Shown here: positions 36,001 to 42,000 of the stretch, piece after piece
How the letters are laid out: every line of letters begins with the position of its first letter
Position numbering within the stretch: position 1 is the stretch's first letter
Source: Opitutales bacterium
GTDB lineage: Bacteria; Verrucomicrobiota; Verrucomicrobiia; Opitutales; PNEW01
DNA length: 64,000 nt
Direction of reading: 5' to 3'
Assembly: GCA_965197745.1 (NCBI GenBank)
Contig: CBDANS010000007.1
Coordinates: forward strand, 1,600,001 to 1,664,000
Position numbers: made by a program

Positions 36001-39000
36001 TTTTTAATATTGGTTTAGAATTTGACCTGCGGCGTCTGCAACGTGTTTTAGGGCCGGCGACCCTTGCCATTATTTTACAGACAGCGGGCATGGTGATTCT
36101 CGGCATGCTTATCGCGCCCGTTTTAGGATGGGACACAACGCATGCGGTTTTTTTGGGAAGCCTTCTTGCCATCAGTTCCTCGATGGTCACTTATAAAATA
36201 TTACGCGATCAAGGTCGCATCAAACATCCGCATGCCCAACTGGCGATTGGAATCCTTATTCTCGAAGATCTCCTTGGTGTCGCCATTCTTGTTTTGCTGA
36301 CCGGGGTGGCCGTGACCGGACATTTTGCCTGGGGATCAGTATGGCAAGTAACTTTTTTCGTGGGAGTTTTTGTCGTCGTCGTTTATTTTTCAGGCAAGTT
36401 GATCGCGCCCGCGATTTTAAATTTTATCTACCGTTTTGGCAGCATAGAATTGATTACCCTATTTGCGGTTGGAATGGTTTTTGGAATCAGCGTGCTCGCG
36501 CAGGTTTTTCATTTCTCTGTCGCGCTCGGCGCATTTCTTGCAGGTTCTATATTTTCCCATACTGAGCATGTTGAGGAAATTGAAAATGCGATGCGTCCGA
36601 TGTACGATGTATTTTGCGCGATATTTTTCGTGTCCGTGGGCATGTTAATTAATCCCGTTCTTCTCATTGAAAACGGGGTGTGGATCATTTTTCTTTCGCT
36701 CCTGGTAATCGCCGGTAAAATCATTACTTGCTGGACTGGTTTATTTCTCGCGGGACAGCCATCACGAAGCAGCTTTCGAGCAGCTGTGGCCAAGTGCCAG
36801 ATTGCGGAATTCAGCTTCATCATCGCGGAATTAGGGCAGAGGCTTAATGTTACGGATCAAAACCTTACAACCGGTGCTATCGGTGTGGCTTTAATCACCA
36901 TAACATTAACGCCGCTCCTCAGTAATCACTCGGAGAAGATCTATAAAGCAATGGCCCGCAGATCGCCAGAACCGGTTCGAATTATCGGGCGATTTTATCA
37001 CAATCTGTTGGAGACTATTTTTACGGTAATCGGCCGCAACACCTTACTGCGTCTTATCAAAAGACCTATTCTGCACATATTGGGATACTTTTTTTTATTT
37101 AATGGGGTCGTTTTTATAAGCTATTTCGCGGCACTCTTTGTCGAGAAGCAAGGGCTGGGAGGCTCTTACCATTATTTAATATACAGTGGAATATGGTTAC
37201 TGGCAGCATTGGCGATGCTGCCTCCAATCGTAGCGATTATCCGCAATTCTGATGTTATTGTGATGTTGGTCTCGGAATCGGTTTTAGGATCCGGTGCCAC
37301 GAGCCAAACGTTTAAAGGACGTATGCGTAATATTTTTAACAACCTAATCCTCCTTTTAGTGTTAGTCTACGTGGGGGGTATTTACTTGTCAGCAGCAGCC
37401 AGATATTTCCCCAAGGGCCTGGCGTTGGTTCTTTTTTTTGGATTAATTTTCACGGTCGGATTTATTTTTTGGCGACATATGATTGCCCTTAATTCCCGAA
37501 TTGAAATTCTATTTATGAAAAGCCTTAACCAGCGCTCATACGATATGGATGAAAAACGGCGCTCAACGATAATGAGAGAGATCTCGAGTAAACACTCCTG
37601 GCCCGTTCATTTACAGGAGATGACCGTGAAAAGTGGGACCCTGGCCAATGGTAAACGGATACTTGATTTAAATCTGCGCAGACAAACAGGTTCGACCATT
37701 ATCGCAATGGGTCGAGGCAGCACTCACATCTTTGATCCCAGTCCCGACGCTCCCATTTTTGCCGGTGATCATCTTCTTCTTTTGGGGAGCGAGACGCAAA
37801 CTCAGAAAGCAGTCGATTTTCTTTCAGCAAAATCAAGGGATGAAAAGATTTCACCGCTAGCTTCATTTAAAACCGAACAGGTCTACTTAAATCCGGGATC
37901 AGAACTCGATGGTAACACGCTTGCCGGGGCTGACTTACGCCGTCGCTATGGTATCAATGTTGTCGGTTTACAGAGGGGGACCAAACGCATGACTTCACCG
38001 CCCGCTGATGAAATACTTCGCGCCGGTGATATTCTCCTGGTGGTATGTGAACCTGAAGCTTTAGCAGATTTCCAAAATAAGAGCAACCCGAAGCCCTCCT
38101 CATAGATTTCACATTGCTTATGAACCCAGTCTTTATTTATTTTTCTGAAGTAGAGTATCAAAAATAATATGGCCACAGAATCTATATGCGGTGTCTGGAT
38201 AAGTCCAACTGGAGAAGCGCATCTATCCATAGGCGAGGGCAAGAACAAGCGTGAGGAAGTAGTAGAAAAATGGACACCCTTCCTTTGGGCTGATTCATTG
38301 CCGATAGGTGGGAAAGTGAGCGAAGAAAGGTTGAACGGTGATGACCCTTTCAAACACCTCTTGTCTTTCGAGATGATGGAGGATTTGCGCGATGCGACGC
38401 AAAAATCGCAAAGAAATTTCGCGATGGAAATGGTCCGGCCCTATGAGTGTCAATTTCTTCTATACTGTCAGAAACGCCTTTATGCTGAATTAAGTTTCAA
38501 TGATCTTCATCGCTGTCAATGTGACATAGAAACGGCTTGTTCCGTGGAGGGAAGCTTCAGCGATGCAAAGAGGAAGGAGGATCGCGTATTGGCCATAGGG
38601 CTCCATTTTAATGATGAGAGAAAAAGTCATTTATTGACCCTGGAAAATATAAGTGATGAAGCCGAGAGGGAGTTATTGCAGTCATTTAATTCCATCCTTC
38701 TCGAAGAGGACCCTGATGTAATTGAAGGTCATAATATTCACAGTTTTGATTTTCAATACCTTCGCCAGCGCGGGAAACGATTAAAGGTGCCCTGTGCCTG
38801 GGGGCGATTTGGAAAAGAAGCAAACTTTCGCAACAGTCGATTACGCGTAGCCGAACGCTGGGTGGATTTTGCACGTTGCGATATACCGGGGCGGGCGATC
38901 TTCGATTCTTATTTAGCCATTCAATTATTTGATCTGACGACGCGCGATTTAATTTCATACGGGCTCAAGGATGTCGCCATCTATCTTGGAATTACTGGTG

Positions 39001-42000
39001 GTGACCGTTCCAGTCGCACCTATATTGCCGGTGATAAAATTCAGCACGCATTTTCCGAAGATCGGGATACCTTTCTCGCGTATCTTGCCGATGATCTAAG
39101 AGAGACAAAAGGGGTTGCTGATATTTTGTTACCTACGTATTTTGCGCAAGCTCGCATATTCCCCATGACTTTACAGGAGATTCTTCTTCGTGGCAGCGCA
39201 TACAAAGTTGACCTCCTCTTGCTTGAAAAATATTACCATGCGCGTCGGAGCCTGCCCGCGATGCCTGAAGTGGGTAGTTTTGAAGGTGGGTATACGCGAA
39301 GTTTTAAAACCGGTATTTTTCATCATGTATTGCATTTTGACGTAGCTTCGCTTTATCCGAGTCTGCTCATAATTATGGAGCGCAATCCGTGTAATGACTC
39401 GCTTGGCATATTTGTTCCGTTGCTCAAAGAATTGAGAGAGTATCGATTGAAATACAAAGTATTGGCGAGAGAAGCTGAAAGTGAAGAACTTCGTAAAGAA
39501 TATTCAGCACGACAAAATAGTTTTAAGATACTTATAAATTCTTTTTATGGTTATCTGGGATTTGGTAATGCGCGATTTGCGGACAGTGAACTCGCGGCCG
39601 AAGTGACCCGTCGCGGTCGAGAGATATTGCAGTCCTTGATTGATGAATTCGGAAAATTGGGTTGTGGGGTATTGGAAGCTGATACGGACGGTATATATCT
39701 CACCTCCGAGGAATATCATAATCATCCGGATCGGTTACTAGAGAAGGTCTACCCTATATTACCGGAAGGACTCGAGTTGGAATATGATGGCCGCTATGAA
39801 GCAATTTTCTGTTACAAATCGAAAAATTACGCATTATATGATGGGACTAAAGTGACAATTAGGGGCTCCGCGCTGCGATCGCGCGGGATTGAACCCTACC
39901 TTAAATTACTCACTGACCAGCTTATTCGCTATCTCCTCGGTGTAGAAAAAGAATCGCCATTAATACGGGCTGAAGGATTACGCGGGGAGATTGAAAGCAG
40001 TCAAATTGACATATCACTTATAGCTAAATCAGAATACCTGAGCCAGCAACCCGAAGCTTACAAAAAGGCGGTGACCCAAAGTAAAAAACCGCGACGGGCC
40101 TCCCTCGAAGTTGCCTTACAAACAGAACCCATTCCTAAAATGGGTGAGCGCGTAACTTATTACATACTTCCAAAAGAAAAGGGAAAGACATCTGATTGGC
40201 AGCGCGCTCGCAATATCGCTGATTTTGATCCCCGGCAATTTCCTTTCGACCCCAGCTATTACACTAAAAAAATTGATGCCTGGATAAAGCGTTATAGTGA
40301 ATTTCTGGAAACAGAACAAGGAGACGATGCGGGAAAAAGCAATGAACAGATATCCTTGTTGCCCATCGATGAATGATTAAAGACCGCGCATGAATTGAAA
40401 GACATGATCGGAATTACCGGGAAAATTTTCATGTCTGAAGTCGGGATATAGAGTCATTTCTTTTGGAGATTTTATCTTATTGTAAACGGCAAACTGGGTC
40501 GACGGAGGGCAGATTTCATCCATGAGACCAGTTCCCATATGTACTTTGCCTTCTATGCGTGGAGCTAAGTGTTGAACGTCAATGTAACCGAGTCGAGTGA
40601 AGATTTCATCTTCACGCTTATGCATCGGATCAAAGAGGCGAAAATAAAGTCTTAATTCTTCGTAAGCTAAATTGGCTAAATCCATTTCCCAGACTCTTTT
40701 ATAGTCAGATAAAAAAGGAGCATCTGGAGCAGCCAATTTTATCCTTGGCTCCAGGGCCGCGCAAGCAAGGGTAAGTCCGCCCCCTTGTGACCCTCCCATG
40801 GCACCGACACGATTCTCATCTACATCATCCATGTCCATGATAATGCCGGCAAGTTGTGCCGTATCTAAAAAAATGTTTCTGAATAACAAGGCGTCAGGGT
40901 GATCATCAATGCCGCGAATGAAATGGCCACGATGGGTAGTCCCTTTTACTTTGCCACTGTCTTCCGAGCGTCCTCCCGGGCCGCGGCAATCCATAGCCGC
41001 GACGGTATAACCCAGGGCGACATAGCCGAGTTTATTATACCAATCACCGGCGTTACCTGAATAACCATGGAAGGTGACAAGAGCTGGGTGTTTGTCCTTT
41101 GCATGTGCGGGTCTAAGCAGTTGAACATGGATTCTAGCCCCACCAGTACCGTTAAAATAGAGATGGAAGCATTCAGCATAAGGAACTTCGAACGGGCTTT
41201 TTATAAGCTCAAAATCTCCTCTTAAAGCCTTCATTTCGGAAAGAGCTCGATCCCAATATTTATCAAAGTCATCCGGGCGGGGATTAGTTCCATGGTATTT
41301 TTTCAATTCATCCAGCGGCATATCAATAAGCGGCATCTTTACTTCTCCTTTACTGCTTTCAGGAAAAAAAAGAGGTGGCCTTAACCATTCCTAACCCTGA
41401 TAGAGAGGCTCAAGGCCTTCGGCAAAGCGGTCAATATTTTCCTTCAAAGCACCGATACGTCTTCGACAGGTAGCTACCGTGACTCCCGCAATATGTGGCG
41501 TGGTAATTACGTTGGGGAGTTGAAAAAGCGGGGATTCCGGGTCAGGGGGTTCAGGATCAAATACATCCAAACCCGCACCGGCAATGCGCTTATTTTTTAA
41601 TGCTTCAATTAAGGCCGGCTCATCGACAAGCCCGCCGCGGGCCACGTTGATGAGGATTGCGCTTTTCTTCATAAGCTCGATCCTCCGGCTGTCGATCAGT
41701 TTTTCGGTCTCTGGAAGGAGCGGGACATGGAGTGATATAATGTCAGCTTGGGCAACAAGCTCATCGGTTTTTTCAGTTGTTCCAAAAGAATCAACTCCAT
41801 ATTCATCGAGTAATGTTTGCTCCATGGGTAAGAGGTCAACAGCCATGATTCGCATGGCACAAGCTTTGGCGCGGCGAGCGAGTTCACGACCACTGGCGCC
41901 GAATCCTATTAAGCCGAGGGTCATCCCTCCTAAATCATCCCCAATCGGATCCCACATTTTCTGATTCCGCAATGCTATTTGGGTTTCCTCGAATCGGCGA

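Follow-up and report, generated by a model that had tools for sequence, protein, structure and literature searches.

Across the Verrucomicrobiota, DNA polymerase I (Pol I) and a family-B polymerase (PolB) of the G3 group exclude one another: in a phylum sample of 620 genomes, one per species, 169 carry a Pol I-type enzyme, 242 the PolB orthologue and none both, against 66 expected, and 209 have neither. The exclusion suggests that the two enzymes share the same job, and we consider it probable (about 0.7), from sequence comparison, that PolB supplies the gap-filling half of Pol I, in the manner of primer replacement by archaeal PolB and FEN1. PolB was found in a window of 64,000 nucleotides from an Opitutales bacterium, for which a genome-wide survey's note had proposed PolB and a solo flap endonuclease (FEN) as a stand-in for Pol I. 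The exclusion and the idea of a stand-in hold, and more widely than had been stated, but the direction of replacement, the clamp binding and the necessity of PolB require correction.

The PolB product matches PF00136 (E 1e-23) and PF03104 (E 4e-18) in a profile search, and Exo I–III, polymerase motifs A, B and C and the KxY motif are all intact (Table 1), as is the reading frame that the survey had described. Its homologue counts for motif C (120/120) and Exo I (115/120) were also reproduced. Motif C reads LEADTDG, compared with IYGDTDS in E. coli Pol II, and the glutamate is described as a feature of the G3 group (PMC7544198). The AlphaFold model (mean pLDDT 88.5) has N-terminal, DnaQ-like and polymerase domains in agreement with the G3 architecture, and its top Foldseek matches are Thermococcales PolB structures (TM 0.73–0.79, 21–23% identity). 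With this glutamate, intact exonuclease and polymerase sites and a three-domain build, PolB is probably a member of G3. The 2020 data set includes an Opitutae orthologue, and by eye alone, the Chlorobiales entry Q8KA84 has exonuclease-region motifs in common with PolB. Nibricoccus aquaticus and Rariglobus hedericola are named species that carry the orthologue, so that the genes are obtainable.

Table 1. Features discussed in the text, in window coordinates except for the solo FEN, which is placed on contig C6
Feature	Position	Strand	Remark
Cation/proton antiporter with TrkA-C domains	35754..38105	+	upstream of polB; not a recurring neighbour
PolB ORF	38169..40376	+	735 aa family-B polymerase
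Exo I motif CDIET	38520..38534	+	D119 and E121 invariant across 62 aligned sequences
Exo II motif GHNIHSFD	38727..38750	+	alignment, motif reading
Exo III motif YLADD	39081..39095	+	alignment, motif reading
Polymerase motif A DVASLYP	39339..39359	+	alignment, motif reading
Polymerase motif B KILINSFYG	39525..39551	+	alignment, motif reading
Polymerase motif C LEADTDG	39672..39692	+	G3 glutamate E503, in 120/120 homologues and 71/71 genome orthologues
Putative beta-clamp motif QISLL	40347..40361	+	motif only; low-confidence tail, residues 718–735
Acetyl-xylan-esterase gene	40377..41336	-	convergent; first of three genes separating polB from conserved neighbours
DUF5069 gene	43527..44060	-	conserved neighbour of polB
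rnr (RNase R)	44221..46494	-	conserved neighbour; clusters with RNB-domain protein of G120
Solo FEN	C6:99296-100162		289 aa; nine acidic active-site residues all kept

In the same genome (92% complete), PF00476 finds no match at E<=1, a profile that detects 10/14 controls, and a home-built PolA HMM run with --max over all six frames finds none either. Neither search showed a hidden or fragmented polA, in line with the survey's reading that the Pol I polymerase domain is absent and only a stand-alone flap nuclease is present. The sole match to an E. coli Pol I query is the FEN, which ends at 289 residues with no PolA domain found, unlike PolA1, in which the FEN domain is joined to a family-A polymerase. 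The nine-residue acidic pattern of E. coli Pol I, whose residue numbers we take to be those of the active site and which is indeed acidic at those E. coli positions, is matched by 73/74 solo FENs, the other having a D-to-E change. Solo FENs form their own clade, and the view that they arose lineage by lineage, each through shortening of the Pol I at hand, is rejected on that ground. Nor does DnaE need PolB to proofread for it in trans, the PHP site HHDHEHCDH being intact in the DnaE of this genome and in 5/5 other main DnaEs.

The exclusion recurs at every level of the sample, with no genome holding both enzymes in the order Opitutales (301 genomes: Pol I 62, PolB 138, neither 101), in the other orders of the class (185: 60, 35 and 90) or in the other classes of the phylum (134: 47, 69 and 18). 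Five PolB genomes (G013, G043, G133, G529, G590) have a divergent, mid-scoring family-A polymerase, and if these are scored as Pol I, both occur in 5 genomes against 71 expected. The survey had cautioned that a third or more of genomes have neither enzyme, as is the case here; one of these, G178, lacks both although it is a single contig of 5.1 Mb and 99% complete. Because so many genomes have neither, and PF00136 is silent in all 62 larger and 8 tiny ones tested, PolB is often lost without any Pol I. A divergent PolB concealed in such genomes was thus rejected for 70 of the order's 101. PolB is dispensable where Pol I is missing. PolX as the substitute is uninformative, being present in 3/4 tested genomes with neither enzyme and in the present genome too. 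The exclusion probably does not extend to G3 as a whole, since all Chlorobi are reported to carry a G3 PolB and Chlorobi are not listed among the Pol I-less lineages in the available part of that source (PMC12926913).

The pattern persists when kinship, another of the survey's caveats, is allowed for. On species trees built from RpoB and part of RpoC with hand-picked tips, and with losses taken as independent, PolB would be missing from every Pol I tip with a probability of 4.9e-4 in Opitutales alone (76 tips) and 2.6e-6 in the class (106 tips), rising to 0.026 and 0.002 at a threefold loss rate. G016 was left out because an RpoB match is lacking; G146 and G221 were dropped for lacking even a FEN, and would lower these probabilities if scored as Pol I. 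Family f33 was set aside as a mixed family because G191 has an RpoB fragment that falls with f12, and G191 was dropped. Pagel's test supports dependence of the two genes (LR 32.6, 4 df), and in the fitted dependent model the rate at which lineages with Pol I lose PolB runs to its upper bound. In the 10 independent pairs whose members differ in Pol I, the difference in PolB runs the opposite way in a median of 6 and the same way in 0, the other 4 being uninformative.

The survey had Pol I replaced by PolB; the trees point the other way. Distances for PolB and solo FEN correlate with the species tree at 0.81 and 0.82, those for Pol I only at 0.32–0.36, and the hypothesis that Opitutales Pol I forms one clade fails the AU test (p 0.014). 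Because PolB and solo FEN are vertically inherited and Pol I tracks the tree poorly, Pol I is probably the displacing enzyme among living lineages; it looks to have been re-imported several times, and PolB is absent in every such lineage. In our reading, FEN with PolB is the older condition, passed on vertically in the class and probably throughout the phylum. Two lineages acquired only a FEN-less PolA, and both keep the solo FEN and lack PolB. In genus g223 (6 genomes) this PolA is encoded directly before ligA, and among its closest full-length relatives are proteins whose names point to Eubacteriales and Oscillospiraceae (Clostridia-like). The solo FEN is kept in 4/4 tested g223 genomes and is sister to the FEN of PolB-bearing relatives (support 0.999). 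G506 repeats the pattern. An rnr-DUF5069-polB-dapF block is found in other Opitutales families, and the Pol I genome G033 retains rnr-DUF5069 with polB gone. No polA swapped in situ into the polB site was seen at rnr or DUF5069 in G015, G033 or G051, and a stretch of G125 considered as such a case proved to be a different paralogue. Replication genes, those for FEN and ligase included, were not seen linked to polB in Opitutales, except in G013 and for a topA link in family f98. A promoter scan stayed at chance level (11 vs 10.4).

By its motif, PolB is a candidate clamp-binding protein. Orthologue tails mostly read QGELF, and a looser pattern raises the survey's count of putative clamp motifs from 84/120 to 113/120 close homologues; the same pattern occurs in 48/71 class and 8/20 other-class orthologues. 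As the survey had warned for the closest sisters, the two nearest sister PolBs lack the motif, as do 23/71 scored orthologues. A C-terminal clamp-type motif occurs in 33/74 solo FENs, and the FEN of this genome has none. By partner, the 35 genomes in which both proteins were read have the motif in both proteins (7), PolB only (15), FEN only (3) or neither (10), and in sister G028 it is missing from PolB and FEN alike. Complex prediction for DnaN with PolB residues 690–735 gave 0.26 against a mark of 0.32.

In the mechanism that we propose, PolB would fill gaps and displace RNA primers where Okazaki fragments meet and in repair patches, with proofreading along the way; the separate FEN would cut the flap and ligase would seal the nick. 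Archaeal PolB, FEN1 and ligase are coordinated on PCNA; here, the C-terminal clamp motifs on both proteins could, in many lineages, take the place of the covalent link of Pol I. Arrival of Pol I by transfer would make PolB redundant and lead to its loss, and a whole Pol I would cost the solo FEN as well. With neither enzyme present, DnaE probably fills in. More tentatively, the phylum may ancestrally have matured Okazaki fragments in the archaeal and eukaryotic way, by a Pol-epsilon-related PolB and a free flap nuclease both tethered to the clamp by C-terminal motifs, with Pol I as a repeated later import; this broader view is possible, and we do not lean towards it.

If PolB served only to fill gaps during repair, in the way of the SOS-controlled E. 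coli Pol II, it would overlap with Pol I in excision repair, and DnaE with FEN would mature Okazaki fragments throughout. Such a division of labour likewise predicts the exclusion, and it fits the third of genomes with neither enzyme and the B. subtilis DnaE, which is reported to displace strands and to work with FEN without Pol I (PMC13082043). No SOS sign was seen: a LexA box, sought without a positive control, occurs within one mismatch in 0/72 upstream regions, and an E. coli LexA query has no match in this genome. The incoming PolA of g223 directly before ligA also speaks against a repair-only PolB, which we regard as unlikely. Interference, with Pol I and PolB competing for nicks or the clamp, would select against co-occurrence beyond redundancy. 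It agrees with 0/620 transitional genomes and the bounded PolB loss rate in the dependent model, but a sample of one genome per species cannot display short transitional states, and PolBs of other, non-orthologous kinds are tolerated beside Pol I in G105 and G596; we hold interference to be distinctly improbable.

Even less credible is the absence of any functional link, with PolB lost often anyway and a few Pol I lineages losing it by chance or shared ecology. In its favour, the tree counts 16 PolB and 11 Pol I changes, 4/10 independent pairs say nothing, and PolB is missing too from the sisters of two Pol I lineages, g51 and g18. This reading is already refuted in large part by the conditional probabilities (5e-4 to 3e-6, and <0.03 even at the threefold rate), by recurrence of the pattern in the separate 134 genomes of other classes, 116 of which have exactly one enzyme, and by overlapping genome sizes (medians 2.45 and 3.6 Mb, the latter for the order's PolB genomes).

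Nearly all bacteria are described as having Pol I, the share being 96% in a set of 3070 complete genomes. Both the loss of Pol I with a solo FEN and the existence of G3 have been published; the Pol I/PolB exclusion we did not find in print. G3 (EpsilonN-like) PolBs, the second-largest bacterial PolB group and the bacterial relatives of the catalytic domain of Pol epsilon, are described as experimentally uncharacterised (PMC7544198; PMC12926913), and the exclusion assigns this group without known function a specific, testable job. The present PolB resembles them in motif C glutamate, intact active sites, three-domain build and a putative C-terminal clamp-type motif. The parts of these descriptions available to us state no tie to the absence of Pol I, whereas here PolB is vertical across the phylum and excludes Pol I. 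Bacteria without Pol I but with a solo 5'-3' exonuclease are reported for Tenericutes and Verrucomicrobia (PMC12926913), and as for FEN-DnaE in B. subtilis (PMC13082043), the solo FEN covers the nuclease role, which fits our 209 genomes with neither enzyme. The replacement polymerase is unnamed in the available parts of both accounts, and the solo-FEN set of the former averages 1.48 Mb compared with the median of 3.6 Mb for our order's PolB genomes.

Phages, crAss-like and others, have repeatedly exchanged polymerases of families A and B and never carry the two in one genome (PMC7886860; PMC11348598), as here. The phage swap concerns the replicase and is often in situ, unlike the present exchange, which involves an accessory cellular enzyme with the incoming polA not seen at the polB site; we found such exchange described only for phages. 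As for E. coli Pol II (a G1 PolB), the present enzyme is bacterial and proofreading, with a putative clamp-type tail (QLGLF in Pol II), but Pol II has a YGDTDS motif C that PolB lacks, is 26% identical over 374 columns and coexists with Pol I. Okazaki maturation in Thermococcus is reported to require PolB, FEN and ligase (PMC4432273), and the likeness lies in separate polymerase and flap nuclease, Thermococcales PolB as the closest solved folds and tails with putative clamp motifs. Identity to archaeal PolB is only 21–23%, tails are lost in many lineages here, and unlike the archaeal route the present one would use a FEN domain of the bacterial Pol I type, with DnaN as clamp and DnaE as replicase. 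It would offer a natural model of a PolB-FEN-clamp route inside bacteria.

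The 735-aa product of the polB open reading frame matches the Pfam family-B exonuclease (PF03104) and polymerase (PF00136) profiles, and has every exonuclease and polymerase motif intact. It also carries the motif C glutamate, which the accessible text of PMC7544198 gives as a mark of G3, B10 and Pol ε, and the description of an intact G3-type polymerase in the genome-wide survey's note therefore holds. The predicted structure (pLDDT 88.5) is confident except for the tail, residues 718–735, where a QISLL sequence is located outside the confident part, and the closest solved folds are Thermococcales PolBs. 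No family-A polymerase domain was found in the genome (7 contigs, 92.3% complete) by Pfam, a home-built HMM or tblastn, in agreement with the survey, and the single flap nuclease (FEN, 289 aa) has a full active site. Two sister genomes, in one and two contigs, likewise lack PF00476 and have PolB. The present genome also has a single DnaE, whose PHP site is intact, a PolX and two DinB-like genes, and tblastn (E 1e-4) with single E. coli queries for LexA, RNase HI and DnaQ, as opposed to family profiles, gave no match in the whole genome.

Pol I and PolB exclude each other. PF00476 and PolB queries were run on identical genome samples. A PF00476 match with E < 1e-120 was taken as Pol I-type, as was one split gene (G296), and a near-full-length match with at least 32% identity as a PolB orthologue. 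Among 301 Opitutales genomes, 62 have Pol I, 138 PolB, none both and 101 neither, and none of the 115 genera is mixed; the corresponding numbers are 60, 35, 0 and 90 for the remaining class (n = 185), and 47, 69, 0 and 18 for other classes of the phylum (n = 134). The exclusion proposed by the survey is thus real, with 0/620 genomes holding both against 66 expected, and reaches beyond the earlier order and class samples. A mid-scoring family-A gene is present in five PolB genomes; three genes of this score class that were inspected (G590, G247 and G410) are FEN-less with long branches, one being a PrimPol fusion, and counting all 13 as Pol I gives 5 genomes with both against 71 expected. Non-orthologous PolBs occur in two Pol I genomes (G105 and G596). 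FEN was detected in 296 of the 301 order genomes, and 61 of the 62 Pol I genomes have one FEN match, so that no second, solo copy is kept.

Kinship was accounted for with a species tree of RpoB and partial RpoC from 109 genomes, 79 from the order (one per genus, of 115 genera) and 30 from the 185 of the class sample, in which Pol I lineages are dispersed among PolB and "neither" lineages. With the PolB loss rate fitted on non-Pol I tips, the probability of PolB being absent from every Pol I tip comes to 4.9e-4 for the order, where the tips over-represent "neither" genera and the value is conservative, and 2.6e-6 for the class, where the rest-of-class tips under-represent them (4/90) and it is not; a tripled loss rate gives 0.026 and 0.002, respectively. 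Pagel's test, which can overstate, yields LR = 32.6, and independent pairs comprise 6 opposite, 0 same and 4 unchanged (median p 0.03). The RpoB fragment (L176) of G191, a genome assigned to family f33, clusters with f12, which points to a possible mixed bin.

The survey's note had G3 PolB and solo FEN replacing Pol I, and here the recent direction appears reversed. The PolB and solo-FEN trees follow the species tree (Spearman 0.81 for 45 tips and 0.82 for 51 tips), whereas the Pol I domains do so weakly (0.36 for 17 tips and 0.32 for 20 tips). All 74 solo FENs analysed fall in one clade (support 0.876) separate from the Pol I N-domains, and Opitutales Pol I sequences are placed at five positions. 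A single group of nine of these (genus g51 excluded) is rejected at p 0.014, in a test that used 47 of the 69 rows, the group having been picked after the first tree was seen. Several Opitutales families share an rnr-DUF5069-polB-dapF block, which three inserted genes have loosened in the present genome, and the Pol I genome G033 keeps rnr and DUF5069 with polB gone. An ancestor with all three genes and later reciprocal loss is an alternative, but requires long coexistence, and no sampled genome shows it. The most economical interpretation is that FEN plus PolB represents the old state and that Pol I was imported repeatedly. The phylum's PolBs need not be monophyletic.

Several further arrangements were observed at these loci. 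A hisG-like gene, as judged by its sequence start, neighbours both the full Pol I of G617 (L337/L304) and several Opitutales solo FENs, and may mark an ancestral polA site. In G013 (L194), and in no other genome seen, the solo FEN lies about 3 kb from polB on the same contig, and polB directly follows topA in two genera of family f98 (L315 and L317; G540 and G518). DUF5069 (L357–L368) is expanded, with 7 matches in G178 and 9 in G051, occurs in G015 and G051 as a triple repeat within proteins of about 435 aa, and was not found in 14 control genomes.

The best evidence on the role of PolB comes from FEN-less PolA lineages. In genus g223 (family f98), five genomes have a PolA of 709–720 aa (the start in G508 is unsure), encoded immediately before ligA; the FEN domain is absent in the one scanned and annotated in none of its close homologues. 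The closest full-length relatives, which match the polymerase part at about 60% identity, include Eubacteriales- and Oscillospiraceae-named proteins, and the PolA with its UCP014422 domain is a chimeric Pol I of probable Clostridia origin. Solo FEN is kept in 4/4 g223 genomes tested, is sister to that of the PolB-bearing g214 and g231, and adjoins the same gene in G522 and G540. PolB occurs in 0/6 g223 genomes compared with 9/12 other f98 genomes. G506 shows the same combination: its PolA (553 aa) is FEN-less, a solo FEN is present and PolB is absent, and 25/32 genomes of its family, f91, have PolB. Import of the polymerase half alone therefore accompanies PolB absence and FEN retention, which suggests that PolB corresponds to the polymerase half of Pol I. 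The full-length Pol I of g51 (about 850 aa; L147–L154) groups with these FEN-less PolAs in the FEN and PolA trees, apart from the phylum's other Pol I.

Locations of the polymerase genes and the DUF5069 gene
Feature	Location	Strand	Remarks
polB	window 38169-40376	+	
DUF5069	window 43527-44060		
FEN-less PolA, G522	L381:6452-8584	-	N-terminal UCP014422 (PF27709) domain fused; directly before NAD-dependent ligase; also L277, L278, L285, L296
PrimPol + 3'-5' exonuclease + PolA fusion, G247	L355:2078-6619	-	1514 aa
Klenow-like PolA, G410	L356:2499-4214	+	572 aa; genome without Pol I and PolB; divergent from adjoining DinB gene

A clamp pattern of the QxxL[FLW] type, scored in the last 12 residues (consensus QxxLF in the available part of PMC12926913), is present in 48/71 class PolBs, in 33/74 solo FENs (14/48 in the order and 19/26 outside; for example QLSLF, QGELF and QMDLF) and in 0/69 PolA proteins. 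It is missing from the FEN of the present genome, and from both proteins in 10/35 genomes. The survey's clamp-binding PolB stands as far as the motif goes, with QISLL here; binding by the PolB and FEN tails is predicted from it, and the clamp could then replace the covalent link between polymerase and nuclease in Pol I.

Open frames similar in size and score to the G247 fusion occur in G013, G445, G349, G326, G585, G559 and G529. In f45, part of f91 (L241, L248 and L250) and some f12 copies, PolB orthologues are shortened to about 660–690 aa and their Exo I/II region is degenerate, which suggests that proofreading has been lost in some lineages.

We consider it likely, at roughly 70%, that G3 PolB and solo FEN act like a split Pol I, and the data are compatible with both Okazaki maturation and repair filling. 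The parts of PMC12926913 available to us already report Verrucomicrobia that have lost Pol I and carry a solo FEN, as well as clamp motifs in G3 polymerases, describe B-family members as scattered, Chlorobi excepted, and do not state the exclusion. Among titles and abstract openings searched, a set that most subscription papers fall outside, none states the exclusion or describes bacterial solo FENs that carry a clamp motif. The literature covered also includes PMC4432273, PMC7886860, PMC10201439, PMC8565304 and PMC11348598. All Chlorobi have G3, yet the same parts of PMC12926913 do not name them among Pol I-less lineages, and the exclusion may therefore be limited to this phylum.

Neither enzyme is present in 209/620 genomes. 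Of the 101 such genomes in the order, 39 are at most 1.3 Mb, and larger cases include the entire lineages f22, f26, g13 and g29, plus G178. Solo FENs with clamp-type tails persist in reduced genomes of 0.7–1.0 Mb (L135, L183, L192, L205 and L206) even though Pol I and PolB are both absent there. In B. subtilis, DnaE with FEN can do the job, according to the accessible part of PMC13082043, and since this pair could cover the "neither" state, the role of PolB would by analogy be accessory.
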